Program-made: the position numbers and the translations under genes
Assembly (NCBI GenBank): GCA_964510025.1
Contig: CAZDZV010000002.1
Location: forward strand, 62,001 to 126,000
Origin: an uncultured Methanosarcinales archaeon
GTDB taxonomy: Archaea; Nanobdellota; Nanobdellia; Woesearchaeales; DATDXC01
DNA length: 64,000 bases
Reading direction: 5' to 3'
Part shown: positions 912-61,600 of the stretch, one piece after another
Numbering within the stretch: the first letter of the stretch is position 1
How the letters are laid out: each line of letters begins with the position of its first letter
The notes under the pieces: model-generated
Database searches by the model: none
Seen by the model: the letters and a program-made list of their open reading frames with translations, nothing else
Told to the model about the DNA's origin: nothing

Positions 912-3161
912 ATGCAATTTTACACACATCATCCGATGGTCGATTACATGGGGGGTATCTCCGACTACAAGAATTCCATGGACCCAGGGAACTACAGCCC
1001 TTCGACAGGAGAGCAGCTCAATATGAGCATCAAGGATATTGGAATGTCTGTACCTATGGGCATATCAGCAGCAAATGTTTCCGGGATATACAGCAAGATA
1101 AGGATGGGCGCTGGCTCGATCGAGATCGGATTTCCTGGTGTGTTTTCAGGCCAGAGGCAGGCTCAAACCCCTGGCATGTACGGAGAAGACCAGAGGCAGG
1201 CAATAAAGGAGCTGGCCAAGATCAACGAGATCAACCTTACCACTCACAGCGCCTACAACATAATGGGGCTGATGGGCAGGGACCAGAGGGATAATTTCTC
1301 ATTGACAAATGCAAAAGCCAGTGAGCTCGAGATTGAAAGAGCCATTGATTTTGCTGCAGATACCGCCGGAAAGGGATCTGTGGTAGTGCATACCGGAGAA
1401 TGGGAAAGGCCGCTGACAGACATAACAGTAGATGATGCGACCTGGCAGAAAAACTACTCCTACTCTGATGACGGAAGGCTGATGTTCAGAAAAAGGGTGC
1501 CTGAGCTTCACGATGCAAATTTTGTTCTGCTGGATGACAGGACAAGCCAGAAGATGGAGACAGTGCAGAAAGACCGGAAGGTAGCTGTGCCTAAGTGGAG
1601 AAAAGCAGAAGATGATTATGAAGGCATATACCAGGACAATATCCATATTATCGATCCAAATGATAAGTGGATGGAGAATTACAAAGGGCAAAAGGTAAAG
1701 ATCAAAAAAGGAGACTATATAGACTATGAGGGCAAGAAGATAATAAACCCCTATGACCCGAAATACGGAAGGGTCCCTGAATTTGACGAAGGCACAAGCA
1801 GGTTCAAGGTGGAATACAGGGTCTGGGATGATTTTATTGAAGAGGCAAAAGAGCAGACAGAGTGGAAGCGGCAGCACTGGGTGGAGATGACTGGCAAGAG
1901 ACCTGAAAATGATGAGCATTGGTATTATGACGGCGTTATATATCCTGATGAGGCGTTCCTGCATGCCACTCTGGAGACCAATGAAGGGCATTCAAGAGGA
2001 TGGGCATTGCAGTATGCACAAAGCACAGCAACTCATCTTGAAGCTATAGAGAAACTTAAGAAGGTCAAGACATTCTATGAACAGCTTGATGAAAACCTTA
2101 CAGAGGATGAAAAATGGAAGATAATGAAGCAGGACGACAACATATTCAGGTATACAAGAGGGCTCGTGCCTCCGGAGACCAAGCATCCGCTAAAGATGAT
2201 AGACGAGCTTCTGAAGGAGCACCGGATAGGGCTAGAGTTTGCCAGGCAGGCATCTGCCTCCCAGCAGCAGCAGGCTGAGGATACTGCCGAAACAAAGAAG
2301 CATATTGTAACCCCTTTGAAAAGATTCAAGAAGCATGTGGCAAGACTTTATGCTGAAGCTGGAATAAGGGCCATGCAGCGCACAAAAGACCCGAACAATC
2401 CGATATTTCTGGCCATTGAGAACATCTTTCCCGAAAGGTTCGGTGGCCATCCGCAAGAGCTCAGGTTTGTAATCGATGAAGCAAGGAAATGGTTCGTTAA
2501 ATTCCTGACTAAACAAGAGAACATAGACCATGGCCTAATGTCCAAGCAGAATGATAATTTTGAAGCTTCGAAGTTCGGCACAAGCCCATTTTATGTTCCT
2601 GGGATGAGCAGGCAGGAAGCTGAAAAGCTGGCGGAAAAGCACATAAAGGCAACGATCGATACCGGCCACATGAACATGTGGAGAAAATTCTGGCAGCCCA
2701 AGCCTGGGCAGAGCATAGAGGAAGCTGACAAGGAATTCAGAAACTGGTATGTAACTGAATTTGAAAAACTGGCAAAGGGGGGCTATATCGGCAATATCCA
2801 TCTTACTGACAATTACGGATTTCAGGACGACCATATAGCGCCTGGCCAAGGCAATGCCCCTATAAAGGAAATCCTCCACACCCTTAAAAAACATGGCTAT
2901 GACAAAGCTATAACGGTCGAGCCTGGAGCAGATGCCTCAACAGACCTTTCAGATTTCCATGGCCTGATGAAAACATGGCGATATGTGGGCGCACCTATCC
3001 ATGGCATATATGCCAGCGGTGGTGGCGGGGGTGTAAGACCTCAGACATGGGGGGATGTACACTACTCATATTTCGGCCAGAACAAGCCGCCGTATTTCAT
3101 ATTTGGTTCCTACAGCCCGTCTAATGACTGGACCCTGTGGACCCAGGTGCCGATGGAATAA
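912..3161 (+). CDS. Xylose-isomerase/AP endonuclease 2-like TIM-barrel metalloprotein with a large insertion
   Basis: Ordered metal-ligand motifs TTHS, VVHTG, AIEN, DTGH, IHLTDN..DDH, TVEPG; roughly 340 aa lie between HTG and AIEN. Confidence 0.75.
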   Translation: MQFYTHHPMVDYMGGISDYKNSMDPGNYSPSTGEQLNMSIKDIGMSVPMGISAANVSGIYSKIRMGAGSIEIGFPGVFSGQRQAQTPGMYGEDQRQAIKELAKINEINLTTHSAYNIMGLMGRDQRDNFSLTNAKASELEIERAIDFAADTAGKGSVVVHTGEWERPLTDITVDDATWQKNYSYSDDGRLMFRKRVPELHDANFVLLDDRTSQKMETVQKDRKVAVPKWRKAEDDYEGIYQDNIHIIDPNDKWMENYKGQKVKIKKGDYIDYEGKKIINPYDPKYGRVPEFDEGTSRFKVEYRVWDDFIEEAKEQTEWKRQHWVEMTGKRPENDEHWYYDGVIYPDEAFLHATLETNEGHSRGWALQYAQSTATHLEAIEKLKKVKTFYEQLDENLTEDEKWKIMKQDDNIFRYTRGLVPPETKHPLKMIDELLKEHRIGLEFARQASASQQQQAEDTAETKKHIVTPLKRFKKHVARLYAEAGIRAMQRTKDPNNPIFLAIENIFPERFGGHPQELRFVIDEARKWFVKFLTKQENIDHGLMSKQNDNFEASKFGTSPFYVPGMSRQEAEKLAEKHIKATIDTGHMNMWRKFWQPKPGQSIEEADKEFRNWYVTEFEKLAKGGYIGNIHLTDNYGFQDDHIAPGQGNAPIKEILHTLKKHGYDKAITVEPGADASTDLSDFHGLMKTWRYVGAPIHGIYASGGGGGVRPQTWGDVHYSYFGQNKPPYFIFGSYSPSNDWTLWTQVPME

Positions 3162-5221: not shown

Positions 5222-6205
5222 ATGGGTAAAATGCTGCCTTTTATTTTGCTCATACTGGGGATCGTATTTCTTGTGATGGGCGCGGACAGGGTTGTGGAAG
5301 CTGCAAAGAAGCTTTCACTGAAATTTCATGTCTCCCATGCATTTATTGGGCTTACCATAATATCTATAGGCACTTCTCTGCCAGAGATATTTACAAATGT
5401 CTTTTCCGGGATCAAAACTCTAGAAGGAATCGAAGCCAGCGGCATAGCCGTAGGTACAAACATAGGGAGCTGCCTGTCGCAGATAACGCTTGTATTGGGG
5501 CTGACTGCATTGTTGGGCACTATGCATATAACCAGGAAAGCCTTGTTCAGGGACGGGTTCATGATCCTTTTTTCAATAGCACTTATGTTTATTTTTGGTC
5601 TTGATGGTTCTGTTTCAAGGATAGAGGGCGTTTTCCTCTTGGGGGGTTATATGATCTACCTGTACATCCTGAGCAGGCACCATGATGTTGTAAAGAATGT
5701 ATCCAGCGAAATAAGGTCCAAAAAGCAAAAGCATAAGGAGATAAACATCCTGAAGAACATGGTCTATATAACAATAGGGATCGTATTGCTTGTGGTAGGA
5801 TCAGATCTTGTAGTAAACAACGCACTGAAGATAAGCGAAATGTTTGGATTAGCCCAATCATTTGTGGGTGTGATGATAGTAGGGGTAGGTGGAGCGCTGC
5901 CTGAGCTCTCTACTGCCATAAAAGGTGTCCTGAAGAAAGCCCAAGGAATATCTCTGGGAACGCTGATGGGATCCAATGTTACAGACCCCATGTTTTCCCT
6001 GGGCAGCGGAGCTTTGATCAGCGGATTTTCCTTTGCCAAGAATCTGCTGTTCTTTGACCTGCCTTTCTGGTTCTTCGCTACTATAGCAGCATTGGTTCTG
6101 ATCAGGAAAGATATGGGCATCGGCAAGAAAGACAGATGGAAAGGGATAATTTTGTTGGCCCTCTATGCGGTATTTGTTGTGCTGAAGATCAGCTTCTTCA
6201 TGTAG
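5222..6205 (+). CDS. Ca2+/Na+ antiporter (CaCA, YrbG-like)
   Basis: About 10 TM segments; alpha repeats GTSLPE...GTNIGS and GGALPE...GTLMGSN. Confidence 0.9.
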   Translation: MGKMLPFILLILGIVFLVMGADRVVEAAKKLSLKFHVSHAFIGLTIISIGTSLPEIFTNVFSGIKTLEGIEASGIAVGTNIGSCLSQITLVLGLTALLGTMHITRKALFRDGFMILFSIALMFIFGLDGSVSRIEGVFLLGGYMIYLYILSRHHDVVKNVSSEIRSKKQKHKEINILKNMVYITIGIVLLVVGSDLVVNNALKISEMFGLAQSFVGVMIVGVGGALPELSTAIKGVLKKAQGISLGTLMGSNVTDPMFSLGSGALISGFSFAKNLLFFDLPFWFFATIAALVLIRKDMGIGKKDRWKGIILLALYAVFVVLKISFFM

Positions 6206-7127
6206 GTTTTCTTTTTCTGAGGAAGATAAGCCATCCCAGGCCCGCTAAAGCAACAGCTGCAGGATATACCCAAAGATAACTGGGTTGTTTTGGAGAAGTC
6301 TGCAGCTTAAAGGAATCTTCAGGCTCCATTATTATGACCTCTCTTTTTTCGCAGGGCTTACAGGGGCCCCCGCAATCAATGTCCTCCTCGCCCTGGTTCT
6401 GGATATTATCAAAACAGCTCGGGACATATTCGCATTCCTGATGTGAAGCAGGCGGCCGCCATGTGTCCGGACATGTTCCGATGTTTATGCAGGACCTTGT
6501 CTGTTGATTGTTCGGGTAGCAGGAGGTCCATTCGCTGCATGTCCATCTGTAGATGCAGCCTCCTTGTGCAGATGGCTCTTCCACTATTTCTTCCTTGATA
6601 GGTATCTCTTCGGCAGAATACACCGGACCAAATCCTGTCACATTGAAGGCCATGGTGCCCCTTGTATAGTTTAGCTTCAGGCAGACAGTGGAAGGGCATA
6701 TCCCCCTATCTGCCAGCAAACGCGGATTAGTGAAAGGCAGGCTATAGAGGTAGAGCGTAGCAGGCACATCCAAAGCAGGCAAGGCTGTTACGTTGATCCA
6801 TATTGTGTTGTAGGTGATGTTGATGTGGCTGTCAAGATCTATCATATAGTTTTCAGCCATTGTTGTCAGGTTGATCGTAGAGCCGTTAAAGACGATCATG
6901 CCGTATGGTGCTGCTTCCAGCCTCATATTTGATACAGCTTCCAGCTCTGTGTTATTCAGTGCAGAAAAGTTCGTGCTTGTGCCGTTGAAGGAGCCTGCAA
7001 ATACCCTAATAGGTATGTTGATCTCTATACCTGATCTGGTCTGCTCCACGGCCATGCCTGTAATGGCATTGTCAGAGACAGCAAAAGGTAAGCAAAGAAT
7101 CAAAACAAATAAAAGTTTCATAAACAT
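6198..7127 (-). CDS. Exported membrane-anchored protein with Cys-rich modules
   Basis: Signal peptide followed by ITGMAV; beta domain; CxxxWxCxxWxxC and CFDNIQNQGEEDIDCGGPC modules; C-terminal TM plus RKRK. Confidence 0.8.
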   Translation of the reverse strand: MFMKLLFVLILCLPFAVSDNAITGMAVEQTRSGIEINIPIRVFAGSFNGTSTNFSALNNTELEAVSNMRLEAAPYGMIVFNGSTINLTTMAENYMIDLDSHINITYNTIWINVTALPALDVPATLYLYSLPFTNPRLLADRGICPSTVCLKLNYTRGTMAFNVTGFGPVYSAEEIPIKEEIVEEPSAQGGCIYRWTCSEWTSCYPNNQQTRSCINIGTCPDTWRPPASHQECEYVPSCFDNIQNQGEEDIDCGGPCKPCEKREVIIMEPEDSFKLQTSPKQPSYLWVYPAAVALAGLGWLIFLRKRKPT

Positions 7128-7153
7128 GGAATGTAATATGTAGAACTTATATA

Positions 7154-7786
7154 TTACTTTTTCCGTTTTCTTTTCTTCTTAGCTGGTTTCTTCTTAGCTG
7201 CGGCCGTCTTAGCTGGGGCCTTCCTTTTTCTGAGTATGAGTACGATCAAGATGATCGATATTACAGCAACTGCAATATATACCATTGTCCAGTCTCTTGG
7301 GTATGGGCTGCATCTTACGCGCAATTTCAATGGTACTGAAACACCCAAAGAGGTAGCTGAACCTGATCCTGTGCTTGTGCCGGGCTTTTCCATGGCTACT
7401 ATCTTACCGCTGTATGACACTTCCTCGTCGCTGCATTTCTGCTCACAGATAAAGTTTCCGACAAGACAGTCTTCAGGATAGATATTTGCAATCTGAAAGC
7501 AGAATTCAATCGGAACTGCCTCCTTATGGGTTGTGCCTGCATTGATCAGCTTTGCCTCGCTCTTTTCAGAGACAATGACCTCTTTCAGCTCATCTGATAC
7601 GCTTAGCAGAGCGGTCACATCCTCTTCCCAGGGGTTATAGATGCCATATTGCACGCAATGCACAGAATCCTCATTCACAATCTCAATCTCAGTATCCCAG
7701 ACGACACCTACCCCTTTTCTGGCAACTGACATAGCTGGCAGAAGCAAGACTGCAAGAATCACTATGAACGCGAACCTAAATTTCAT
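7154..7786 (-). CDS. Exported Ig-like protein with C-terminal TM and very basic tail
   Basis: Signal peptide, beta-rich domain with 6 Cys, TM, KKKPAKKKRKRKK tail. Confidence 0.8.
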   Translation of the reverse strand: MKFRFAFIVILAVLLLPAMSVARKGVGVVWDTEIEIVNEDSVHCVQYGIYNPWEEDVTALLSVSDELKEVIVSEKSEAKLINAGTTHKEAVPIEFCFQIANIYPEDCLVGNFICEQKCSDEEVSYSGKIVAMEKPGTSTGSGSATSLGVSVPLKLRVRCSPYPRDWTMVYIAVAVISIILIVLILRKRKAPAKTAAAKKKPAKKKRKRKK

Positions 7787-7802
7787 CTTTCTACCTCTTT
7801 TT

Positions 7803-8429
7803 TTATGAACATTCGTTTCCGGTCTGGACTCCCTCGAAATACAGGTTATTTGTATAGGTGCCTGCAGATACGCCTGCTGTTACGTTCAGCCAGAATCGAT
7901 AATAGTTGCTGTTATTTCTAGCTATATTTTCGCTTCCCTTAACATAATACAATGTAATGTTGCTGCTGTCTGCCCAAGCTGGATTATCCACATCATTTGA
8001 TGTGGAATCAGACCATGTATAATTCTGCAACAATATTTCAGCTCCGCCGAGTGTAGTGAGATTGTCATCTGCCCTTATACACAGGTCTATGGCTACATTG
8101 GAGTCCCATGAATTGGTAATATAGTACTCTGTCTGGTTTCCAACACCTATTGAGCCGCCGCCTTCGCTTGTATTGTAGTTTCCTGTAGCATTTATGTTAT
8201 ATTTTGGAAGTACATCAACTGTCTGAAAATTTATCCCGTTTGACAGGTTATCGGACATGGCAATTGAAAAATATGACTGGATGACCACTTCTGAAGCTGC
8301 TGACTGCTCTGTTGCGTGCCCTGTAATTGATACAGCTTCAGGAAGCCATGTATTGAGGATACCTGCAAGGGAAAATACAAAAACAACAATAAGAACGGTT
8401 AATGCCAAGTTTTCCTGTGACTTTTCCAT
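7803..8429 (-). CDS. Exported single-domain pilin/WxL-like protein
   Basis: N-terminal hydrophobic helix followed by ITGHAT; ends YYRFWLNVTAGVSAGTYTNNLYFEG; homologous to the C-terminus of the upstream giant protein. Confidence 0.7.
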   Translation of the reverse strand: MEKSQENLALTVLIVVFVFSLAGILNTWLPEAVSITGHATEQSAASEVVIQSYFSIAMSDNLSNGINFQTVDVLPKYNINATGNYNTSEGGGSIGVGNQTEYYITNSWDSNVAIDLCIRADDNLTTLGGAEILLQNYTWSDSTSNDVDNPAWADSSNITLYYVKGSENIARNNSNYYRFWLNVTAGVSAGTYTNNLYFEGVQTGNECS

Positions 8430-8529
8430 TTTTAGACAGTATATTGATTCTCTAGACCGTGTTGCTTGTCCAGACTAATCTTATCCATTATGTTCCTTAT
8501 TTATAAATTTTACTGTTTTAAAGTGATTA

Positions 8530-11500
8530 TTAAGGCTGTTCGCCTGATGGAACTCCTTTGATTGAGACTGTATTTGAGTATTCTCCTGCTGCCTGCGAGC
8601 CAGGGACTGTAAGGAAGAACTTAAGATATACGTTGCTGCCGTCCGGCAGATCAGAGCCGATCTGATTGTCTGAAAAATTAGTGGTCAACCTAAACTTATT
8701 GTAGCTCGGAACAGACATATTTGTAAGGTTAAAGCTGAAGGTCTCGTTGCTGAGAAGGATAATCTGGCCCCCAGGTGTAGTGAGATTATCGTCTGCCTTT
8801 ATGTACAGGTCAGCTGTTGTTCCTGTTGCAGACACAGCTACATCATAACCTGTATAGCCTGTCCCATTATTGTTGTTAGCAGACTGGTTCTCTATAGGAA
8901 GGCTGACTATTGTCCAGTTTATGCCCCCTGAAAGGTGGTCTGACATTGAAACTGAGATAGCCTGAGATGGGTTTATCTCAAACTCCCATATTGCTGAAGA
9001 ATTTGTGGAATAGCTGTCATTTGTCAATACTCTCCAATAATAGCTGTCTTCTGGAAGCTCTTCATCTTTGGCTATTGTATAATTCGTGTCTGTGAATCCT
9101 TTTTTCTCAAATTCGGGGGATGAAAAATCCTTGTCATTGTCTATCTGCAGCTTAAACGTAAAATAGTCCATGTCTTCATCTGACGCATTTGTCCAGTTAA
9201 AGAACGTTGTGTTGTCAGCTGTTATGGTAGCATTTGGCGGCTCTATCAAGCTTACGTTTGCAGGCAGCCTGTTCTCTATCTTAAAGGTCTGCAGAGCGCC
9301 TTCCTGAAGATTATTCGCTGTGTCGTTTGCGTAGTAGCGCCAGCCGACTACCTGCTGGTTGGTGTAGTTGGCTGATGAAACATTGAAGTAATAGATGTCG
9401 TCTTCATTTTCAGGAGTAAGGTTTTCCCATGAGCTGCTCCAGTTGCCTGCGATCCATACCTGGTCCAGGTTTGAATCTGTTATAGTGGCATTGAGCTGGG
9501 TATGGTCATCATTGTGCACTGTGGAAGGGGACTTTGCCTCGCTTCCAATTGCAGGGAGATCAGCATCGCATTCTGTTGATATGCCTGTTACATCTGTGTA
9601 ATTATACCTAACAGGATAACCTGTATCACTAGCCCCTGTATGCGTAAAGCCCACATCTGCATCTGATGAAATGCACTGCCAGTCATAGTACCATGCATCT
9701 CCTGCGCCATCTGTCAGCTCGTAGCTAACCCCGCCTATAGTGGCGTTTGCATAGCCTATTGTCTCTGATGCGTCTGTTATGGATACAGAGAACTTTGCAT
9801 AATCGTCAGCTCCCAGAAGCGAATCATTGACTGCATATCCTGAAAATTGGGGATAATCGGAATTAGAGCTTACATTGATATTGATGTCGGTGCTATTTAC
9901 CTGATCCAAGGTGTCATTTACGCTTACATTTATGTAGTAAACGCCCTGGTCCAGCAGTGTTGCATTGCCCAGGATACCTTCTATGCTCATATTGAAGCGT
10001 ACTGTGTCATTTATGAAGTAAGAAGAGACATACAGCATGTCAGACGCATTGAAGTCGACATTCAGGTGATCTACAGTGTATTCAAGCTGTGCGTTGGCAG
10101 GATATTCATCCCATGTTGGGGCAGAATAGTCTACGTAGATGGTCCTTTGTTTTGATTCATTAAGGTTATCTGCGGAGTCATATGCATAGGCTTGATAGGT
10201 ATAGGTGCCTTCAACTAAGCCTATCGTTGAATTCTTGCTCTGGTTTGCAATGATGTACCATTGTGAGCTGTTATGCTTATACAGGTTGCTGAAATAAAGC
10301 TGCTGAATCTCATCTGCTGAAAGAGATATATTCCATATCCTGACCTCATCGATTGTGCCGTTGAAGAAACCATAAGTAAGGTAGTGTCTTGCCCCTATCG
10401 CTACATTATTGCTTACTGCATCTAAATCAGGGGATCCGGCAGCTATGCTATCTTCCTGGTTTCCATTTATGTAGAGGATATGGTCTGTGCCGTCCCATGT
10501 CACAGCAATATGGTACCATGTGTCTTTTTCTATGGTTGTCTTTGAGTTAATGACCTTCTCCTCTCCATCCCAGATATAGCTGTAGAAAGTGTCATCTTCA
10601 TCCTGGTAGAGGATCATCCGGCCTTCAAGATATACAAGCTGAGGGCAGCTATCTGAAACGCATGTCGGAGCCAGGCTGTAGGGCTTGGCCCAGAGAGATA
10701 TGGTGGCCTTTTCAAGCTGCGCAGCTGAGAAAACATCCTGGCCAAGATTGATATAATCCCAGTCGCCATCGAATTCAAAAGAGCCCTGGTATTTTCCAGC
10801 AGACCGGTTGAAACCTGAGGCGCCGATATCTATGCCGGATCCTATGCTCCTGTTGTTCACATAGGTGCCGTTGTTCTGCTGCCTGCTTAGATCAGCTATG
10901 TGGGTTGAATTCTCCCCCAGCGCAGTGAGGTTGTTGAGGTTCATGAACAAAACAAGCGAATCATTATACAGGGTGCAGTTGGTTCCGTTCCAGTTAAATT
11001 TAGCTTCCTTAAGGTCGTTTTCGGCTATGCTGACATTGACTTCCAGCCAGTCCTGCCTCTGCAAGGTAGCGTTGACAGGAGTATCATTTATGAATTCAAG
11101 GCTTGGCGGGCCTGTATCCGGAAGAAGCGTAAGTGTAAATTCATCTTCGATATTATGCTCAAGGCTGAGATTGTAGCTATGGGTAACTGTATCATAACCT
11201 GAAGCAGTAGCGTTCATGGTGTAGTTGCTATAATGGTCTTTTGTGCCATCTGTATTTATATAGTCGGTCAGCTGCGCTGTCTCGGTGAGCCCATCGCCGC
11301 CGGTTGTGAGGTTCACCTGGTTTTTTATCGACACATTATATATATAGATGCCAGCTTGATCGACAGCTATCGAATTTGTGTCTTCAACATAGGCATTGTA
11401 GTACCATTTTCTAGTCAGCTGCATGGCTCCGTCTCCTGCACCTGAAAAAGCATCTGTACCGGAATAAGATACGTTCACAAACGTATTATTTAGAGCTACG

Positions 11501-14500
11501 CCGCCCAGATCAGCATCTTTTTGGAGATGTATATCATCTCCTGACATAGCTGTGACATTTATATCTTCAAAAATATTATGGGATATGGGCGAAGCCAGAC
11601 CGTCTGAATAAAGATGGATGCCGTTGGCTGAATCCTCGCTGTAATTCAAAAACATGGTGCTAAATCTGTTATACTGTGATTTTGAGTATAGGTAGATGCA
11701 CTGGGAGGTGCAGTTCCACTGGCTGATCTCATCGAAAGCATTGTTGGAACCGTAATAGATGTAAAGGCGGTTGCTCGTAAAATTTATGTCATGGAAATCA
11801 TTCTTATTGCTTCGCTCCATATAAAGCCCGCCGCTTCTCCTTACATTCAGGCTTTTCATGCTGTTATTATCAGAATAAGATAGATATATCCCATAGTCAG
11901 AACTGATAGCCGAAAGATTTGTGGCTGTCCTGCTGATGGTATTATTGTCACTATTTGAGAGATAGAGGCCATACGCCATACCTGAAAAGGTGGATTCCAT
12001 CGAGTTAACCTCACATCCGGTTATGTTTGCATAGAAGGAATAATCCAGATGAAGCCCGTATATGGTCGACAGGAAGCCAAAATTACCCACTGATGAGAAG
12101 GATAGGTTTGAGATTGTAGAATTATAGGCTCTGGTCAGGCTCACAGCCCTTCCAAAGCCGTATATTTCGCCATTTTTGATTGTTGAACGGTTATAGCCCT
12201 TAACATATACTCCGTAATCGTCCACTGAATTGCTATCCCCGGTGATATTGAAACCGTTCAGGTCCAAGGTGACATTGTTGGCCTGTATCCTGATGCATGT
12301 TTCAGTTGTGTTGATGGACTGATTCAAGGTATAGACAACATCAGGGTCGGTCAAATTACCGCACTGATAGACAGTATTGTTTGACTCATTATATATGGTG
12401 GGGTCGACAATATAGTCAAATTCCACAGCTGAATCCAGTATCTTAAGGTCGAAAGCATCGTTTGTTGAATTAAGCCCGGCCAGGTAAACCTTGTGCCAAG
12501 CCTCTGATGTGATATTGAGGAAAGAGGCCAGCAGGCTGGCACCATCTTTGGTGTAGACGTGGATCCTAGAGGTTGCATTGCTCCTGGCGTATATGGTGAT
12601 ATCGTTTGCTGATGTCAGGTTCTCTTCGAAAGAGACGCGCACATATTCATCAGGAAGTATCTTCTCAGACCAGCTGTTGTCTTTCTCCCTTACCTCCCTG
12701 TAGATGTCTGAGACAAATACCTTGTCCTGGTCAAGGTGATATGCTGTTGTTATCTCGATTATGAGAAGATAAGACTGGTTGGAGAGATGAGGTACAATCC
12801 ATTCGATATAGTCGACGTGTCCGTCATTGTCTCTGTCATACGGCTCAAAGTCGACCTGTTTTCGTGTCCCGTTCACCTCCCAATAGAGCCAGATGCCTGA
12901 CTCCGGCACAGGAAGGCCTATATCCGTATAAGCAAGGACATTTTCATAGTGGATATCCGAGATTATCTTTATCAGCTTAGACCTATTTGTGACATTTTCT
13001 TCAGCTGAATACGGGCCTTCTGTGTAATACTCTACCTCAACTTCGTCAACCTCATCTCCAATGACTATCTCTGTCACATTGGTCTCATTGACAGCTGGCA
13101 CAGCTTCTGCTCCGAACATCCCGGTTATCAGGGAGAATCCTCTTGCGTTCTTTGACAGCTTTCTTGTTTCCGGCGGCTTACCGAACTCAATCTTTGCGCC
13201 AAAAAGCCATTCAAAGAACCTTATGAACCATCCTTTGCTTTCGGCGGAGATTGCATATCCTGTAAGATGGTTTTTCTGGTTCTTATGCGCAATAAGCTTT
13301 GTATTTATCTCCTTCAGCTGCTTCTTGTTGAGCACATTTTCCCTTTTTTCGGCAAGAAGCTCTGTCACTTCATCATCTATTATCTCAAGCTTCTTGTCAG
13401 TCAGGTATTCATCATATTCTTTCTGGACGCCTTTGTGGATCACAGTGATCTTATCTTCTCCTATCTTCTCTTCCATCCCTTGCTTTATTCGCCTCGCAGT
13501 GAAATTAAGCGCTTCATCAGATATGTTGAGGGTTACATTGCTGGCTGTCGCGTTAAGCCTGACTTTTTTCTGCCATTTTACAGGCCTGCCGATCACTGCG
13601 ATGCCCTGTTTTACTGTCTCTGTCCTGTTGAAGACCTGTTTCTTTGCAACATTTACCTCAAAGGTATTCGAAACAGAGACCAGCTCAGAATCGTTTGCGC
13701 TGAAGAATATGTATTGCTTGCCGGAAAATCCCTCATCAGGCACTATGGCAGCACTGTAATCCGATAGTATAACGCTGAGATTTTCTGCATTATGGCAGCT
13801 GATGATGAGATTATCATTGTCAGGTTCAGAGATGTAGTCAGTGAGATTTAGCACCAGCTGCTGGCCTGGATCGATCTTCTGGTCTGGAATGACGTCCCAT
13901 TTTGGCGGCCGGTTGGGAATCTCTTGAACTGAAGTGTAAGCCACTGAATCAAGCGCCAAAGTGGTATTCCTGATGTCTATCTTCAGCAGATATTTGCTCT
14001 TGTTGAAATTTTTCAGCGTGCATGTTTCAACGCACGCATCCTCAAAGTATATCATCTCGGGATGGAATCCTGCAGAAAGGTGCGCAAATGCAGAATGGAG
14101 CACCTCAAAGTATAGGTTGTCCACTGTAAGGTTGTAGTCAAAATAGATGATCTGGCTGCTGACAATATTCTTGTAGGTGGCTCCGTAAGAGCCATGATTG
14201 AGCAGAAAGGGCTCATCCCAGCTTTCCTTTGAAGGCTGGAGATCTATGAAGTTGCAGCATTCATGGTCCCCATAGCAGAGTTTTGTGATATCTGCAGTGT
14301 CCATGCTCTTCACTATCCAGTGCGTGCATAGCTTATCCTTGTCTACATCCCAGCTGAACTCGCTGTCCTCTACAGTGAAATCGATTATTCCGCTTGTAGA
14401 TTCAAAGCCGTTGTTATCTATGTCATAGCTGCTTCCTGGGTCATATTCCAGCTTCGCGACTATCGATTTGTTAAGGCCGGAAGTCTGTTCAGAGGTGTTG

Positions 14501-15330
14501 TAGCTGATCACCATCTCAGAAAGGTTGACTGATGATCTGGATATAGCATGGTCTATGAGATAGCCTGTGTCCAAGACAATGTATTCTGTGTTGTTTTCAT
14601 GAAGAGTGATCTTCACCTCAGAATCAAGGGGGATGCTGCCGCTAAGGCTGATGGATCTAATCTCTGAAGGGTTCTGAACAAGCCAGATATACTCTGTAGT
14701 CTGGTTGAGGACAAGGTTCAGGGGATCCTGATAGCTGTATTCCTCTGTTACAACGGTGAATCCTGTCATGCCTGGATTGATGACAAAGATAAGGCCCAGG
14801 ATAAATAAGGCTATAACAGGCAGAACCTTCAAGTATATCCCCCAGTTGACCTCCTTCCACAGGTACCTTTGTTTCTGCTCCCAGCTGATATTCTGCGGAG
14901 CTGGTTTTACTTCGCAGTGCTTTGCCACAACAGCGGGCTTTGGCGGCTCTTTTTTCGGGGCCGGCTTTCTTCTAAGCTGGTTTCTTATCCACTGCTTCCT
15001 TATTCTTTCAACATCTTTTTCACTAAAGGGCTTCAATGGGTTTTTCTTTTGGTCTAGGTAATCTTCAAAGGAGCTGTCGATATATCTTATCTGCCTTTTG
15101 CCTGTTCGCTTCCTAGCCTTCTTTTTGGGAGTCCCCTTGAGTTCGATAGGCGATTTCTTGTTTATTTTCTGGTGCAGATCAAGCCATTCTTTCCTCTTTT
15201 TTCCCTGGACCTCATCATCAAGCTTGATCAGGAGCTCCCTTTTAGAGATATATCCATTGTCATAAGCTTCTAGCAGCTGGTATCCATGCTTATGGGAAAG
15301 AACCTTTTGCTTGAATGTTGTCTTATCCAT
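8530..15330 (-). CDS. Giant surface protein, 2266 aa: basic N-terminal domain, TM, Ig/cadherin-like, NosD-type beta-helix, LamG-like, Ig-like and C-terminal pilin-like domain
   Basis: TM near aa 165-185; GIYL-type beta-helix repeats; LamG motifs WYHIAVTWDG and FNGTIDEVRIWN; many N-x-S/T sequons. Confidence 0.85.
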   Translation of the reverse strand: MDKTTFKQKVLSHKHGYQLLEAYDNGYISKRELLIKLDDEVQGKKRKEWLDLHQKINKKSPIELKGTPKKKARKRTGKRQIRYIDSSFEDYLDQKKNPLKPFSEKDVERIRKQWIRNQLRRKPAPKKEPPKPAVVAKHCEVKPAPQNISWEQKQRYLWKEVNWGIYLKVLPVIALFILGLIFVINPGMTGFTVVTEEYSYQDPLNLVLNQTTEYIWLVQNPSEIRSISLSGSIPLDSEVKITLHENNTEYIVLDTGYLIDHAISRSSVNLSEMVISYNTSEQTSGLNKSIVAKLEYDPGSSYDIDNNGFESTSGIIDFTVEDSEFSWDVDKDKLCTHWIVKSMDTADITKLCYGDHECCNFIDLQPSKESWDEPFLLNHGSYGATYKNIVSSQIIYFDYNLTVDNLYFEVLHSAFAHLSAGFHPEMIYFEDACVETCTLKNFNKSKYLLKIDIRNTTLALDSVAYTSVQEIPNRPPKWDVIPDQKIDPGQQLVLNLTDYISEPDNDNLIISCHNAENLSVILSDYSAAIVPDEGFSGKQYIFFSANDSELVSVSNTFEVNVAKKQVFNRTETVKQGIAVIGRPVKWQKKVRLNATASNVTLNISDEALNFTARRIKQGMEEKIGEDKITVIHKGVQKEYDEYLTDKKLEIIDDEVTELLAEKRENVLNKKQLKEINTKLIAHKNQKNHLTGYAISAESKGWFIRFFEWLFGAKIEFGKPPETRKLSKNARGFSLITGMFGAEAVPAVNETNVTEIVIGDEVDEVEVEYYTEGPYSAEENVTNRSKLIKIISDIHYENVLAYTDIGLPVPESGIWLYWEVNGTRKQVDFEPYDRDNDGHVDYIEWIVPHLSNQSYLLIIEITTAYHLDQDKVFVSDIYREVREKDNSWSEKILPDEYVRVSFEENLTSANDITIYARSNATSRIHVYTKDGASLLASFLNITSEAWHKVYLAGLNSTNDAFDLKILDSAVEFDYIVDPTIYNESNNTVYQCGNLTDPDVVYTLNQSINTTETCIRIQANNVTLDLNGFNITGDSNSVDDYGVYVKGYNRSTIKNGEIYGFGRAVSLTRAYNSTISNLSFSSVGNFGFLSTIYGLHLDYSFYANITGCEVNSMESTFSGMAYGLYLSNSDNNTISRTATNLSAISSDYGIYLSYSDNNSMKSLNVRRSGGLYMERSNKNDFHDINFTSNRLYIYYGSNNAFDEISQWNCTSQCIYLYSKSQYNRFSTMFLNYSEDSANGIHLYSDGLASPISHNIFEDINVTAMSGDDIHLQKDADLGGVALNNTFVNVSYSGTDAFSGAGDGAMQLTRKWYYNAYVEDTNSIAVDQAGIYIYNVSIKNQVNLTTGGDGLTETAQLTDYINTDGTKDHYSNYTMNATASGYDTVTHSYNLSLEHNIEDEFTLTLLPDTGPPSLEFINDTPVNATLQRQDWLEVNVSIAENDLKEAKFNWNGTNCTLYNDSLVLFMNLNNLTALGENSTHIADLSRQQNNGTYVNNRSIGSGIDIGASGFNRSAGKYQGSFEFDGDWDYINLGQDVFSAAQLEKATISLWAKPYSLAPTCVSDSCPQLVYLEGRMILYQDEDDTFYSYIWDGEEKVINSKTTIEKDTWYHIAVTWDGTDHILYINGNQEDSIAAGSPDLDAVSNNVAIGARHYLTYGFFNGTIDEVRIWNISLSADEIQQLYFSNLYKHNSSQWYIIANQSKNSTIGLVEGTYTYQAYAYDSADNLNESKQRTIYVDYSAPTWDEYPANAQLEYTVDHLNVDFNASDMLYVSSYFINDTVRFNMSIEGILGNATLLDQGVYYINVSVNDTLDQVNSTDININVSSNSDYPQFSGYAVNDSLLGADDYAKFSVSITDASETIGYANATIGGVSYELTDGAGDAWYYDWQCISSDADVGFTHTGASDTGYPVRYNYTDVTGISTECDADLPAIGSEAKSPSTVHNDDHTQLNATITDSNLDQVWIAGNWSSSWENLTPENEDDIYYFNVSSANYTNQQVVGWRYYANDTANNLQEGALQTFKIENRLPANVSLIEPPNATITADNTTFFNWTNASDEDMDYFTFKLQIDNDKDFSSPEFEKKGFTDTNYTIAKDEELPEDSYYWRVLTNDSYSTNSSAIWEFEINPSQAISVSMSDHLSGGINWTIVSLPIENQSANNNNGTGYTGYDVAVSATGTTADLYIKADDNLTTPGGQIILLSNETFSFNLTNMSVPSYNKFRLTTNFSDNQIGSDLPDGSNVYLKFFLTVPGSQAAGEYSNTVSIKGVPSGEQP

Positions 15331-15583
15331 TTTTTATGTAAACCTGCCTCACCTTGAACGTGCAGCCCCATAGCTCCAGGAACTGCTTCACATCAGATGC
15401 AAACTGGGAAGGCACCAGAAGCACTGTTCTTCCAAGGTGCTCTATATCATATTTAGCTACTATGCCGCTCTTGCCATCCCGGCCTTTAAGTGAATAATAG
15501 AACCTTATCTTATCTTTTTTCTGGAGGTGTTTTGTTGAATATGTAAATAGAAATAACTCATTGAGTTTTGCATATGAAGACAT
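15323..15583 (-). CDS. Small hypothetical protein, 86 aa (possible ferredoxin-like fold)
   Basis: LFTYST...KIRFYYSLKGRDGKSG...VLLVP; stop overlaps the start of the giant gene; upstream BRE/TATA. Confidence 0.75.
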   Translation of the reverse strand: MSSYAKLNELFLFTYSTKHLQKKDKIRFYYSLKGRDGKSGIVAKYDIEHLGRTVLLVPSQFASDVKQFLELWGCTFKVRQVYIKNG

Positions 15584-55220: not shown

Positions 55221-55661
55221 TCAATCCCTTTGCATGAGCTTCTTTATAAATCCTGCTATTCTCTGCCACATTGACGGCTTTTTCCGTTCTACAGCCTCCA
55301 CTGTCAGCTCATGGTTTGTGCAGGCCTTTGTAGAGAGCACCGCATCCTGATGCCTGAGAGCGGTTCCGCATATCTCCAGCTTGGCTGAATGAGTGCCGGG
55401 CTCTTTCAGGAAGATATCGAGCTTCACTGTCTTTCTTGATCTGCTCTCCAGGATAAATGTCTCCTGGTCCACCTCAAGCCAGTCATAATCCTCCTCTATC
55501 GTGATCCTTTCAGGAAACTCTGAGCCCTGTGAAACATCAAAATAGGCTTCAGCATGCTGCCATGTTTCTGTTTTCACAGAATTTGTCGGCAAAGCCCCGA
55601 TGCTTTGGGCGTAGGCAGAGCTAACAAAGAGCAGCATCAAGATTGGGATTGCTTTTTTCAT
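55221..55661 (-). CDS. Exported single Ig-like domain protein
   Basis: Signal peptide ending AYA; beta-rich, two Cys; amphipathic C-terminal helix; ATGA overlap with the giant gene. Confidence 0.75.
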   Translation of the reverse strand: MKKAIPILMLLFVSSAYAQSIGALPTNSVKTETWQHAEAYFDVSQGSEFPERITIEEDYDWLEVDQETFILESRSRKTVKLDIFLKEPGTHSAKLEICGTALRHQDAVLSTKACTNHELTVEAVERKKPSMWQRIAGFIKKLMQRD

Positions 55662-58600
55662 GTGTTCTCAAAGACTATCGTGTTGTTGTATTGTTGAGAC
55701 TTAACCTGGGGTATTGTTATCCTGAAATAAAGGCTGTGATTTGCCTTTACGCTGAGGTTGCTCGTGAATGCAGTGGCTGTCGTGGTTATATTTAAGTATT
55801 CTGAAAATGTGGATTCATTTGCGTAGTCGATGTTCTCAATCGGGATCTCATAGCTGTCATCTGGATAGCCTGTGAGATTGCCTGAGGCGTTGATCGTCAT
55901 GTTCAGCCTCACATTTCCCCTGTTTTCTATCACAGCAGGGAAACCGAAGCCTACTGTCGCATTCTGGTCTTCCAGGAGCGCTGCCAGCTGGCCGAACTGG
56001 ATAGGCACATTGGTGAGCACAAACCCTTCAAGCTCTGTTATGTTGAAGTTTGCGGCAAATGAGGCATTTGCCTTTGAGGTGTCGTTTACATAGACAGTTA
56101 TGTTCCACCTGCCTGGCTCATCATCATAGCTGATGGAGAAGGATCCGTTGTACATGCAGGTGCTGCCTGCGCATACAACCTCTTCCAGCGTATAGTTGGT
56201 GTATGTGGGGATCTCTTTTGATGTGGTCAGGTTCCATACCTTTAGCCATGTGACATCTATATCTTCTGTGTCTCCGATTATGGTTACGTTGAACCATGCA
56301 TGGATCGTCCTCAGAGAATTGACCACAGGTGCCACCTGATACCCTGCTTTTGATGGATCATCATCTGTCATGTTGAACCAGTCTATCTTCAGGCCTGCCT
56401 CCAAGGTGAAGACATGCATAAGATTGTTCTGCTCAGCTGTGACGTTGTATTCCTTATTATCGTCAAAGTAGCTTGGGGATGAGGCATATATCGTATAGTT
56501 GCTGAAATAGGTTGTTGTGCCGCCATCGTTTACATAATCTGTCATCTGCATCTTAGGTGTGTAGCCATCGGCGCCTGTGGTAGCGTTGAAATGATAGGCT
56601 GCAGATATGTTGTAGGCTGTTATATTGATGCTGCTCAATGGGAGGCCATCAGTATCGTTAACATATGCCCTGTAGTGCCATCTTCTTATGAGTGTGGAGT
56701 TCTTATCCACAGACTCGTCATCATAGCTTACGTTGACAAAGGTGTTGTTCAGGTTCAGCGATCCCAAGGAATCATCCATATAGACACCATAGCTGTCAAT
56801 ATCTGTAAGGTTCATGTCCCTAAATGTATTCCCTGAGCAGCTGGTTGAGGCTGAATCTGAGACAATCGATAACCCGTAATTCCCACTCCTGTTGATGAAA
56901 GCATTTATGAAGGTGTTATTGTCCGAGCGATAGCTGCCTATGCAGGCATATGAGCCGCCGGATGAGCAGTTCCATATGCTTATGCCAGCAAAAGAATTAT
57001 TGTGGGAGTACAGAGAAATATAAAATCCATATTGGACATTGGAATTCGCAGTTATATTTGCCAGAACATTATGCTCTGAGCTTGAGTACATATATATACC
57101 ATGCCTTTCGTTTGAATTTGCTGTCACATTTGTCAGCCTGTTATTTCTTGAGCCTAAGTAGATATACAGCCCGTCCTCCTCATTGTGGCTGGCTGTTATA
57201 TCTGACAGGATGTTCTCAGAGGAGACGCTTATATACAATCCCTGGCCATTGTTGTTTGTAGTGATGCTTTTCAGGGTGTTGTTGTGGCTTCCGCTCATGC
57301 GTATGCCGTAGTTCATCCTTGTGCCTTCACAAGAGCTGAAGTCCAGATAGCTTGCGTTAATGTTCTCCAGGTGATTATAGTTGCCCTGCAGATAGATACC
57401 TATGTTGTCGCAGTCATCCCCTCCTGCAGCTACTCTGCCGCTTATGGTGAGGTTGGTGAAGTTACCGTGATCGGCGCTGGAGAGGATCCCATTTCCAAAA
57501 TTATATATGCGGCCGTTGATGACTGTGAGATTGTCGCTGCTGCTGTCCAAGATGCCATAGTCAAACTCTCCGCCATCTCCTGTGATATTGTAGCTGTTCA
57601 TGTCCAGGGTTATGTTTTCTGCTGTCACTGTAAAGCAGGTGCCTGTTATGCCCACTATATCCTGCTGCAGAGTGTATGTGGTGTCAGGCTGGTTCAGCTC
57701 CCTGCAGCTGTATAATGAGCTGTTCTCCACTGCCATGTAGGTTGTGAAGTGTGTTACGTTGAAGACATAGCTTGAGCTGGTGTAGTTAAGGTTGATGCAG
57801 TGGCTGCATTCCGCATATGTGCCGTCATCTTCATAGTCAACTACTGCATTAGGCTCTTCAAGGCTGATGGTTATAGTGATGTTTGCTGTTGTGTTGAAGC
57901 CTTCCTGCTCTGAGGTGTTTACGAAGATATTGTTTGAAGTTATAGAGACTATATCGCTAAGGTTGGAGCCTGATGCATAGAGTGATTTGTTTAAGAAGAG
58001 TATCGAGCCATAGCTTGCATCGTATACTTCCAGAGAGTTGTTCTGCAGGCTGTATTCTGTCACAGTCTGGTCATAGATATGGTAGTTGAGATCCATATTT
58101 TCGAAACTGTTGTTGATTATCTGGGTTTTGGTCCCTGAAGATATGTTGAAGGCCTGGGCATTCTTTATATTGTTGCCGAAGAACCTGTTATTGTCCGAAC
58201 TCTCCAGATATACCGCACTATTCAGCTTTTCTGTTATGTTGTTGGATGTGAAATTGTTGCTGCTTGAATCAGCTATGTAGATACCGTAATGCTCTCCGTC
58301 CAAGATATTGTAGTTGATCTGGTTGTCATTGCTTCCTGTCTCAAGATAGATATCAGCCGAGGCTGCATTTGGAGCAGAGGCGTTTATGATAGAAAAGCTT
58401 ATGTTTGTGAAGTTTGCATTGAGGAGCCGGATGCCATAGGAAGCCAGCGCAGGAGAAGCTACACAGGTTGTTGCGTTTATTGTCTCGTTGTATATCACAG
58501 CTGAACTGAAAGATGCCCCCAGATTATATAATATTATTCCATAGGCACCATTAGACGAATTCAGCTTATACCTGTTGGAGTGCAGGACTGGCGAATCAAG

Positions 58601-61600
58601 CATGGGGCCGTTATTCCTGATATATACACCCATAGCGTTTTGGGTAGCGTTCATGTCGATTGTATTTGAAGTTATGCTTATGCTGTCTGTTGAAATGCCT
58701 GTTGCGCCCTGGACAACATATATAGCAGAACCTGCCCACCTGGACCTTGTGTTTATATTGTTGGATGCAATCACTGAATAATCTGACTGCCCTGAATTTA
58801 CTATTGTAATGCCATATGCAGTTTGCTGCACATCCAATGAGATATTGTTGTTGGAGAAATTGTAGAAACCTGCTGACTGACCTGAATCTATCGCCGCATA
58901 TATGCCATAACCATGCTGGTTGTCTACGGTTGTATTAAGTTCCATCACATTGCCATAGACTGCTGTTGCATTGCTGTTTACAAGATATACCCCATAGGGA
59001 GTCACGCTGTAGTTGGTCTTGATCGTATTGTTATGTATTAGGGAATTATTGCTGTTCTCTAGGCTGACACCATACCTGAACCTGCCAATTTTTGCAAAGT
59101 TCCTTATGGTGGCGTTTTCATAGCCATCTGTGTAGACCCCATAGTCATTTCCTGTGCTGTCACCTTCTATTACATGGCTGTTACCGTCCAATGTGATATT
59201 TTCTGCAGCTATCGTGAAGCATGTGCCCTCTATGCCTGTTATGTCAGACTGCAGTGTATAGTAGGTGTTCGGCTGGTCAAGTATGCCGCAGATTCTTGGA
59301 TTAGGGCCTAAGCTCAGGGTGATGACATGCTCAAGGTTGTTTCCAGATGCGTTGTAGCTTAATGTGGCTTTCACATATGACTCATTCTCCCCATAGATGG
59401 TGTAGTTGCTGTAGTATGTCCTTGTGCCGCCGTCATTTGTATACTCTGTGATACCTGTTCTCTGGGTATAGCCTGTTGCATTTGTGGTCAGGTTAAACTG
59501 GTAGATATCTGTAATGTTGTATGCTGTAACGTTTGCATTTATCACTATATTTCCGCCTGTATCATTTACATATGCCCTGTAGTACCACTTTCTTGTCAGC
59601 CTGGATGCTGCATCCACAGATTCCATTGATGTGTCATAGGATGCATTGAGGAATGTGTTGTTCACAGAGCCTACCAGCTCCACAACATAGTCAGCGCTTG
59701 CGCCCAATATTGGATAGGTATATACATCAGTGAACGTATTATTCTCTGAAGACTGAAGATTGATTATGTAATCATCACTGGCGTACAGGTTTGCGCAGGC
59801 ATACAGGTTGTCGAAGATGTTGTCACTGCCGCCATAGACTTTCAGCGCATTGCTTGTAAGATTCAGGCTGCCTGCCGTGAATGTGTTGTTGACACTGGAA
59901 TAAAGGTAAAGATTGAACTCTGTATTGTTTATGGAATAGCTATCAATGACATTATGATAGCTGTTTATCAAGTAGATACCGTAGCTATCATAACTATCAC
60001 CGTTGGCAGATGTATCTGCGCTTCGGATATCTTCAAAACTGCTATAGTTAGCTGAACCATAGAGGGCATAGCTGGAGCCAGAACTTACCGCATGTGCCCC
60101 GAATTCCGCTGTTGTAGCATCATTCCCTGTAAGCGCCATATCCCTAACTGTGTGGTTTCTGCCGACAAGATACAGCCCATAACCATATGCATTGGCATAG
60201 GATTCAGCGCCTGTGGTGTAGGCGTAGCCGTAAGCATACCCTGAATTGGCAGTGTTGTTTTCAAGAGTGGCGTTCGATCCAGTCACGTAGATACCATAGC
60301 AGTATGCATTACCATATGCATTATCGCCGCTGGAGGTGTAGCCGTAGCCGTATGCTTCTGTATCATCTGCTGAGCTATGCTTTATCAAATTGTCTTCCCC
60401 GGAAGCATATATCCCGTAGCCATAGGCATATACTTGCGGCTGCTGACCGTTGTCTGATGAGCTGCCATAGGCATAGCCATAATTGTTGTCTGCAGTTGAA
60501 TAGGTTATATTATTCTTGTTGCCAATGAGATATATCCCGTAGCCATAGCCATAAACATAATTATGGGTGCCGCCTGTCAGGTAGGCGTAGTTGGAATCAG
60601 CAGAGGTATTATGGATAGAATTGCTGTCCCCTGAGACAAAGATCCCATATGTATAGCTGTAGGTAATGTCATCGTTATTCCCATAGTTTGCAGTGAAGTT
60701 GGAATGCTCTATCTTATTGTTTGAACCTATCAGCCTCAGACCATATGTATACACATGATAATCGCCGGTATCGCCTGAGCCTGAATAGATGCGTGAGTCT
60801 TTAACCACGTTAGAAGTGATATTGTTATAATGGCCTATTACAGAAAGGGCTGACAGATTCACCCTTGCACAGCAGCCGCCGCTTAAGTCAAGGCCTTCCA
60901 TATAATTACTTAAAAGTGTGTTATTCTTTATGTCATTGTAAGAGCCTTCTATGTAAAGCCCATAACCGTAATAGTCTTCTGGGGCAAATTCGTCATCAGT
61001 GAAGTTGAGATGGTAGTTGTAAAATCCATTGTCATAAACCTTATTGTTTGAGCCTGTTATGCGGGCACCGCTGCGGGTGTTGTACTGAAATAGATTCTTT
61101 ACCACCCCTATATTTGAAACATCAGCTGCATACAAACCGTCGTTCTGGAACTGGAGATCATTATCGTATATGACAGAATCATTAGCTCCAGCCAGCTCTA
61201 TGCCATAACCCCATCCCCCGTTGGCCCAGTCATTGCAGCAGTAGTAGCCCATCCTTATGTCGCAGTTCCTTATGGTTGTGTTCGGCTGGTCTGAGAAGAC
61301 GCCTACTGTTGCGTCATCGCTGATAATCGAATAGCCGTTGCAGTCCAGGGTGATGTTCGCTGCTGTTATGTTTATGCATGGCACCTTCACATACTGGTCA
61401 TATAATATCGTATTGTTTATTATGCTGCCAATCAGCGTGTAGACTGTATTCGGGGAAGACAAGACCTGGCATTTTCCTATATCTGTCAGGTTGAATATCT
61501 TATAGTAGGTGAAATGAGATACGCTAAAGTAGTATGTGGAGGCGTCATTGCTGAGGCCGGTGCACTGGGGGGCTTCGCATTCCTGGTATGAATTGCCATC

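Follow-up and report, generated by a model that had tools for sequence, protein, structure and literature searches.

In the Elr/WxL system of Enterococcus faecalis and others, found only in Bacillota according to the available text of a 2026 preprint, ElrD polymerizes by strand exchange primed by the membrane-anchored ElrE, and ElrA and ElrB are modelled as tip and base (10.64898/2026.10.17.759780). The same four roles are also proposed for Pam pili in the accessible part of their description (PMC13278184). A cluster of four genes in the 64,000-nucleotide (nt) window analyzed here, positions 62001-126000 of contig C2 in an archaeal genome of 1.70 Mb (G000; 97.7% complete), probably encodes a chaperone-assisted donor-strand-exchange pilus of DPANN archaea, with a giant tip protein, a small shaft subunit, a tethered chaperone and a transmembrane (TM) base anchor. 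Homology, synteny, motif distribution and predicted monomer folds, all observed in this study, form the basis of this reading. Sequence, synteny and predicted-fold evidence converge, and a conserved, candidate archaeal variant of chaperone-assisted donor-strand pili is well supported; through such a thin fibre the small, symbiont-type cells may hold on to surfaces or hosts.

Five open reading frames (ORFs), all on the minus strand and at the expected coordinates, encode proteins of 86, 2,266, 208, 210 and 309 amino acids (aa). They and their features are as follows.

15323..15583, minus strand: P0006, 86 aa, overlapping the start of the giant gene and possibly co-transcribed with it
8530..15330, minus strand: P0002, the giant, candidate tip adhesin of 2,266 aa with a LamG domain, a single TM helix and a C-terminal pilin domain
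14776..14844, minus strand: sole TM helix of the giant (residue 163), followed by a TG-x-T/A motif, a putative signal-peptidase site where cleavage would occur
10303..10764, minus strand: LamG/concanavalin-like lectin domain, giant residues 1523-1676 (PF13385, E 9.7e-25)
8533..8967, minus strand: C-terminal pilin domain of the giant, without donor-strand motif and without Cys pair (BLASTP, profiles)
8500..8507, minus strand: TATA-like box, candidate internal promoter, within the 100 nt that separate the giant gene from the P0001 gene (pattern match)
7803..8429, minus strand: P0001, candidate major pilin of 208 aa (fold, donor motif, homologue profile)
8280..8300, minus strand: donor-strand motif of P0001, residues 44-50 (alternating conservation, unpaired in the monomer model)
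7154..7786, minus strand: P0003, candidate membrane-anchored single-domain PapD/WxLIP-like chaperone of 210 aa (predicted fold)
7313..7387, minus strand: flexible loop and last strand of P0003, putatively in the F1-G1 loop/G1 donor-strand position of PapD-like chaperones
6198..7127, minus strand: P0004, candidate base anchor/terminator of 309 aa (donor-like strand, C-terminal TM helix, basic tail)
7020..7040, minus strand: donor-like strand of P0004, residues 30-36, with Ile at the V/A position (in register with homologues)

The likeness to the Elr/WxL system extends to all four roles, which the available preprint text describes as a variable adhesin with a C-terminal acceptor-only domain (ElrA), a small pilin with donor and acceptor (ElrD/C), a membrane-anchored PapD-like chaperone (ElrE) and a donor-only base (ElrB) (10.64898/2026.10.17.759780). 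Both systems are usher-less, their small-small-aliphatic donor patterns are alike as far as the published portion shows, and P0003 has its closest structural match in WxLIP. Judged from its predicted fold, a membrane-anchored PapD-like domain lies by the pilin at 31 of 34 DPANN loci. In contrast to the two-domain DUF916 + DUF3324 chaperone, P0003 has one domain; the archaeal donor consensus lacks the terminal Phe of the pattern in the accessible source; and the candidate archaeal base would be anchored through a TM helix followed by a basic tail, with neither LPxTG nor sortase. WxL (PF13731) was found neither in P0001, nor in the 25 families listed for its 135 homologues, nor in the genome (Lactococcus control positive), PF06030 (WxLIP/DUF916) gave no match for P0003, and the 97.7% complete genome contains no sortase. 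An earlier reading of the DNA letters and their translations (the sequence-only reading) had likened the small protein to Csu pilins and WxL domains. That likeness survives for the predicted fold, whose leading Foldseek matches are donor-strand pilins, but not for family membership, P0001 having no Pfam match to the Csu sequence family and no WxL domain.

Pam pili resemble the proposed archaeal system in belonging to small-genome symbionts and in using donor-strand exchange, TM-anchored chaperones (PamC/D), an acceptor-only tip (PamT) and a strand-plus-TM anchor (PamR). In the sections of the source that are accessible, Pam pilins are two-domain proteins in which the donated strand comes from an internal linker, whereas P0001 has a single domain and an N-terminal strand; moreover, Pam chaperones are two-domain proteins, the tip is a bare single domain instead of a giant adhesin, and the pili are reported only in the candidate phyla radiation (CPR) (PMC13278184). 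The DPANN system would work like Elr/WxL and Pam pili but belongs to neither, because it has no WxL, DUF916, usher or sortase match and has a one-domain candidate chaperone and a one-domain pilin.

Like chaperone-usher pili (class 5, with CfaB/CS17; the archaic CsuA/B and CupE; type 1, with FimA/FimH), the archaeal set has an adhesin that ends in an acceptor-only domain and a protein with a predicted PapD-like chaperone domain, and its pilin model, with an N-terminal extension, finds matches among their subunits. However, the archaeal candidate chaperone is tethered, single-domain and without the conserved Arg/Lys pair, and none of the proteins has a Pfam match to these families. The outer-membrane usher (PF00577) has no match in the genome (Escherichia coli control positive), and no periplasm is expected in this archaeon.

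Archaeal strand-donation filaments (the Saci_0406 thread, AbpA, CanA cannulae and Tafi) are also non-type IV, likely N-glycosylated and furnished at the N-terminus with a donor strand, but the available text of their reports assigns them no PapD-like chaperone and lists no DPANN members (PMC9715654, PMC11821415, PMC12337348). Tafi further resembles the DPANN system in its LamG tip (TafC) and proposed membrane terminator (TafF), and differs in that, in the same partial source, its tip donates a strand and its cluster includes a dedicated peptidase (PMC12337348). No dedicated signal peptidase of the SipW or TafD type is present at this locus; two S26-like peptidases (TIGR02228 matches) are encoded away from it, on contigs C6 and C14. 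The best pilin match is to the TLP-1a/b pond-water fibrils (PDB 9IKJ, 9IKK), which cover nearly the whole P0001 model including the N-terminal strand. As far as the accessible account goes, however, TLP-1 has 237 aa, 16% identity, a structure modelled on a bacterial protein, n+4 donation, a hollow 8-nm tube and no known locus (PMC11494351). A literature search that left subscription journals mostly uncovered found no DPANN or other archaeal system of this kind, and the supplements of the 2026 preprints could list archaeal homologues. If the reading is correct, membrane-chaperone-assisted strand exchange, described for Bacillota and CPR in those preprints, would extend to archaea.

The candidate pilin subunit and its putative donor strand

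Residues 55-206 of P0001 align with residues 2126-2265 of the giant (52/153 identical, 34%; BLASTP E 2e-13), and profile-profile comparison of P0001 with the giant's tail gave a probability of 99.9 (E 2.5e-34). The homology of the 208-aa protein to the last ~145 aa of the giant, which the sequence-only reading had drawn from three pairs of matching blocks, is thereby confirmed, and all three pairs are present in the translations. Among the 5,465 ORFs of the genome, a profile of 13 P0001 homologues recovered just P0001 and the giant below E 0.05 (8.8e-81 and 2.7e-22). The family has 247 representatives (50% clustering) at E 0.001. Its Atlas clusters are archaeal, with Woesearchaeota commonest, and the nearest named cluster is WxL, at 0.83 only and for 20% of members, which is a lead. 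No Pfam or NCBIfam family was assigned to P0001, P0003, P0004 or P0006, ten homologues checked by cluster look-up were "hypothetical protein" or nameless, and a search of solved-structure sequences with the 135-sequence P0001 profile gave a best E of 0.97.

P0001 consists of a signal/TM segment, an ITGHA motif, the donor strand, a putatively incomplete immunoglobulin (Ig)-like sandwich with a Cys117/Cys207 pair, and nine sequons. Its mature part (residues 38-208), modelled from an alignment of 135 sequences, is a beta-sandwich with a predicted local distance difference test score (pLDDT) of 94 and a predicted template modelling score (pTM) of 0.86. Model residues 1-18 are confidently placed and have no DSSP pairing, i.e., they form an N-terminal strand without a partner. 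The sequence-only reading had set its pilus against a closed fold without pilin likeness and a gene set not conserved elsewhere; what was found is a free N-terminal strand in the model, a pilin-like predicted fold and a conserved set. About a dozen related pilins of ~290 aa carry a charged N-terminal head of ~95 aa before the TM segment, resembling the head of the giants (L027:9683-10582 and L029:9689-10603; proteins P0045, P0051, P0055 and P0056).

Foldseek ranks 1-24 for P0001 are donor-strand pilins only, with CfaB at E 5e-4, and include TLP-1a/b, CS17, FimA, Saci_0406, CsuA/B, SafA, MyfA, CupE, PapA and AbpA. A second aligner (VIA) gave Z 7.8 for TLP-1b (root mean square deviation [rmsd] 3.2, 141 aligned) and Z 7.5 for CsuA/B (rmsd 3.0, 117 aligned; Csu range Z 7.0-7.5). 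Matches to chaperone-usher pilins are consistent, but at Z 6-7.5 they are tied with non-pilin domains. Structures of TafE, the WxL pilin and the Pam pilin were absent among the listed fold matches from structure libraries that reach to April 2026, an absence that excludes nothing.

The distribution of the donor strand separates small subunits from giants. Across the family this strand reads T-x-S-x-[V/A]-x-[I/V], with every second residue conserved (T44 53%, S46 81%, V/A48 97%, I/V50 96%), and the motif was detected in 126/135 small subunits versus 0/27 giant tails in register, while neighbouring body residues scored equally in both. The Cys pair is likewise present in 124/135 small subunits and in no giant tail. 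The earlier proposal of a small shaft subunit and a giant tip joined through the same domain is supported by the presence of the donor motif in the small subunits and not in the giant tails.

The sequence preceding the strand in 134 pilins is of TG type in 86, AxA type in 33 and another type in 15, and the TG and AxA motifs may represent signal-peptidase I sites. A class III prepilin motif (Glu at +5) was found in 0/128 full-length homologues; identity as a type IV pilin or archaellin was rejected on this count, in agreement with the non-type-IV filament first proposed. The TATA-like box lies 78 nt upstream of P0001 and ~30 nt upstream in most relatives. Within 110 nt, the pattern occurs before 19/23 pilin genes located after a giant (mean on shuffling, 5.3), 9/17 other pilin genes (5.6) and 6/33 chaperone genes (3.9), which fits a highly expressed major subunit. 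A sigma-70 promoter scan, a method unsuited to archaea, was at chance level (21 versus 20.0).

Companion genes and their conservation

Synteny was assessed at 34 small-pilin loci (L001-L031, L043, L045 and L050); L032, cut at a contig start, and L046-L049, which duplicate other layouts, were left out. A larger protein ending in a pilin domain is encoded at 29 of them, directly upstream and on the same strand in 23, and a P0003 homologue at 30, or 31 with a tblastn match in L017. Three of the five loci without a giant start within 200 nt of the pilin gene, and one starts inside a domain fragment. Around the constant tail, tip-type proteins range from 392 to 3,376 aa, some of them open at a contig start. 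Several loci have two pilins, and G229 has three pilin-chaperone pairs in tandem; in that locus (L043:3-19639) a giant of at least 3,376 aa precedes the pairs and a 1,799-aa anchor-type protein follows them.

The 32 loci with P0001 relatives are labelled mostly Woesearchaeota, Pacearchaeota, Nanoarchaeota or unclassified archaea, with one Aenigmatarchaeota and two "Methanosarcinales" (labels unverified). From these labels and the Atlas clusters, the window probably belongs to a DPANN (Nanobdellota) archaeon. In 300 other genomes of the phylum, a close chaperone match was found in 7, the same 7 with an adjacent close pilin match, and a pilin-domain match of any kind (E 1e-5) in 18. Because close matches are confined to 7/300 genomes, the close pilin-chaperone family is patchy. 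Several ~400-aa proteins of other genomes weakly match the P0003 profile, and the superfamily may therefore extend far beyond the close members counted here. Divergent kits (L051:6821-14213 in G204, L027:10792-13602, L029:10826-13084 and L052:149-2065 in G277) hold other pilin-like proteins, two-domain TM proteins of ~370-400 aa and Cys-rich TM anchors.

P0003 has a signal peptide, a beta-sandwich, a C-terminal TM helix, a basic tail and no sequons, as the sequence-only reading had described it (secreted, Ig-like, with TM and basic tail). Its one domain of ~140 aa precedes the TM helix, and the ectodomain model (47-sequence alignment) has a pLDDT of 90.6. The best of 48,161 chains by VIA is WxLIP of Enterococcus faecium (9I1Y; Z 9.7, rmsd 4.0, 112 aligned), and Foldseek returned FaeE, Caf1M, PapD and CsuC at E < 1e-3 alongside MSP domains. 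In the loop and last strand, G and S are invariant and T and L near-invariant, with a loop pLDDT of 68-79. These models make P0003 a candidate tethered single-domain chaperone. It had earlier been called a chaperone or anchor; the first half of that suggestion fits its PapD/WxLIP-like fold, and for the second P0004 is the better candidate. P0003 as base anchor was rejected in favor of P0004, the donor motif occurring in 6/34 chaperones (median score, 1.7).

P0004 has a signal, a TG-x-A motif, the donor-like strand, a domain of ~150 aa, a Cys-rich C-terminal half, a C-terminal TM helix and a basic tail, which bears out the Cys-rich, anchored protein that the sequence-only reading noted and gave no role; it has no acceptor domain. 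A terminator and anchor would be built in this way, from a donor strand and a C-terminal helix with no acceptor; therefore, P0004 is likely the base anchor. The gene after the core was surveyed at 35 core-gene loci including this window, from which L003, L017 and L019 were excluded for want of an ORF within 400 nt downstream. In the remaining 32, the donor profile scored ≥8 in 21, a C-terminal TM helix was present in 24, and both were present in 19. The same profile recognized 43/47 pilins, 6/34 chaperones and 16/296 secreted-like ORFs of this genome. Anchor-type bodies are diverse (337-2,927 aa), and none has a pilin domain. A relaxed motif (Ile allowed at the mid-position, one-residue shift) is present in 17/19 P0004 homologues, P0004 included.

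The giant comprises, in order, a 162-aa head, the TM helix, a conserved module of ~700 aa, a beta-helix-like stretch, LamG, repeats that we take from their sequence pattern to be Ig/FN3-like, and the acceptor-only pilin domain. It has no C-terminal TM helix and 102 N-x-S/T sequons. Residues 167-864 share 45% identity with the beginning of a 10,021-aa ORF, with whose beta-helix repeats residues 984-1433 align. Two more TG-x-A/F motifs flank an amphipathic stretch at residues 689-740 (window ~13090-13270, minus strand) and recur in the 10,021-aa paralogue; they are possible internal processing sites.

Proposed assembly and competing explanations

Cleavage, all contacts, polymerization, order, chaperoning and the adhesive target are proposed as follows. 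Sec would export all four proteins, and subunits would be cut after the TM/signal segment. Membrane-tethered P0003 would then, as its fold suggests, insert one of its strands into each pilin domain's open groove. The giant, whose C-terminal pilin domain would provide a groove without a donor strand, would be loaded first and so end at the tip, there presenting its lectin and beta-helix modules. Assembly would need neither usher nor sortase, and the likely use would be attachment to a host cell or surface. A three-chain complex prediction (giant tail, pilin and P0003, with the pilin scored) gave 0.78, against 0.79 with the tail replaced and 0.00 with the partner replaced, and the design makes the score unassignable.

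Little is established about the means by which DPANN archaea locate their hosts and stay attached to them, and no route is known by which their giant secreted proteins are displayed; the cluster offers a concrete, testable one, in which the short constant tail would serve as a marker for candidate tip adhesins in uncultured genomes. More tentatively, as a possibility rather than an expectation, the pilus could be a host-capture organelle of Woesearchaeota/Pacearchaeota-type symbionts. Built with a minimal one-domain membrane chaperone, it would use the constant tail to plug hypervariable giants (392 to >3,300 aa, possibly also the 10,021-aa protein) onto one shaft; host range would then depend on which tips a cell has, and kits of divergent type would occur across DPANN.

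Several points weigh against a chaperone-assisted pilus. The pilus is predicted from genes and modelled folds, and the loci and genomes are related, some having built the profiles, so that counts are not independent. The TATA pattern was picked after this window was inspected. P0004's own donor-motif score is <1.8 at a cut-off of 8, a good donor motif occurs out of register in L024, one of the 27 giants, and hhalign pairs the strand that precedes in the giant with the donor strand, if weakly (confidence 4-6, two-residue gap). The giant's TM helix follows a 162-aa head rather than a plain signal peptide, and the protein may stay membrane-bound. Generic Ig/MSP domains lie within 1 Z of WxLIP as matches of P0003 (complement C4 9.0, fusexin 8.9), and this single-domain protein has no invariant or nearly invariant Arg/Lys among 47 sequences. 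In the wide VIA search, P0001 reached Z 8 with no chain among 48,161 representatives, and non-pilin domains were level with pilins (CEP192 ASH at Z 7.8, the N-terminal domain of GH123 hexosaminidase at Z 7.7-8.1). Because no chain reached Z 8 and ASH/GH123-type domains tie at the top, the modelled fold of P0001 is suggestive of a pilin and by itself not decisive.

The one-domain build, missing Arg/Lys and unspecific fold matches of P0003 would also suit a fibre in which P0001 self-assembles like TasA, AbpA, thread and Tafi pilins, with P0003 serving as nucleator or as an additional anchor in the membrane. AbpA, Saci_0406, CanA and TasA are among the P0001 fold matches, and described archaeal strand-donation filaments have no assigned chaperone in the available text (PMC9715654; 10.64898/2026.10.17.759780). 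Nevertheless, assembly without a chaperone appears unlikely: the N-terminus of P0003 has no donor motif (6/34 homologues at the cut-off), the fourth gene already fills the anchor role, the WxL chaperone is the best structural match of P0003, and P0003 is repeated with each of the three pilins in G229. A signal peptidase like SipW or TafD is also absent at this locus.

The position of the giant's helix bears on the tip assignment, since a giant at the tip would have to be released from its N-terminal TM helix. Were that helix left uncut, one or a few small subunits could join the giant's tail to the anchor on the same or a neighbouring cell, as a looped coat or cell-cell bridge. The 162-aa head before the giant's only TM helix, heads of 45-70 aa in several relatives and the ~95-aa heads of the ~290-aa pilins are compatible with such a short linker, which is nonetheless improbable. 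Several small tip-type relatives (L009, L011, L012, L013 and L015) have plain signal peptides ending in V-S-A, TG-x-A occupies the position of the A-x-A site in other pilins, and the genome has two S26-like peptidases. Furthermore, the pilin gene has a separate candidate promoter, which suggests many pilin copies per giant.

Least probable is that no polymer forms and that the domain in common is an Ig-like module, complete and locked by a disulfide (compare ASH/MSP and the GH123 N-terminal domain), which tags unrelated secreted proteins for surface sorting or glycan binding; CEP192 ASH and GH123-type domains among the top VIA rows and the prevalent Cys pair of the small subunits would agree with this, but the unpaired conserved strand, its absence from 27 giant tails and reappearance on acceptor-less membrane proteins, and the fixed gene order would all be left unexplained.

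The second giant and neighbouring genes

The 10,021-aa ORF (G000:C2:117658-147723) is rich in beta-helix repeats, and its last 2,769 aa correspond to window positions 55658-63967 (minus strand). BLASTP shows no similarity between its tail and P0001 (best E 0.51), and the 13-homologue profile did not pick the tail up; the 135-sequence profile gave 27 bits (E 1e-9 in a seven-sequence file), and by this measure the tail is a divergent pilin-domain relative. The second giant of the sequence-only reading thus retains a pilin-like tail, but what was read there is only the end of an ORF that leaves the window. Searched with a profile of seven divergent pilin domains, the genome yielded no further stand-alone pilin. 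A 146-aa secreted protein (window 55221-55661, minus strand) begins in an overlap with the end of the 10,021-aa giant's gene. By eye it looks like a one-domain chaperone of PapD type that lacks a TM helix, but it went undetected by a small chaperone profile. None of the other very long secreted-looking ORFs (7,464, 5,223, 5,182 and 2,786 aa), on contigs C8, C4 and C1, has the pilin tail motif.

The nearest Atlas clusters of P0006 are unnamed Woesearchaeota proteins (0.91), and tandem-domain P0006 homologues adjoin the pilin gene, directly upstream, in two loci (L027 and L029). Elsewhere in the window, thermosome-like and histone-like ORFs are presumably archaeal housekeeping genes. A 749-aa protein (window 912-3161, plus strand) has what we take to be a xylose-isomerase-like/TIM-barrel look, and a similar protein is present in L032.

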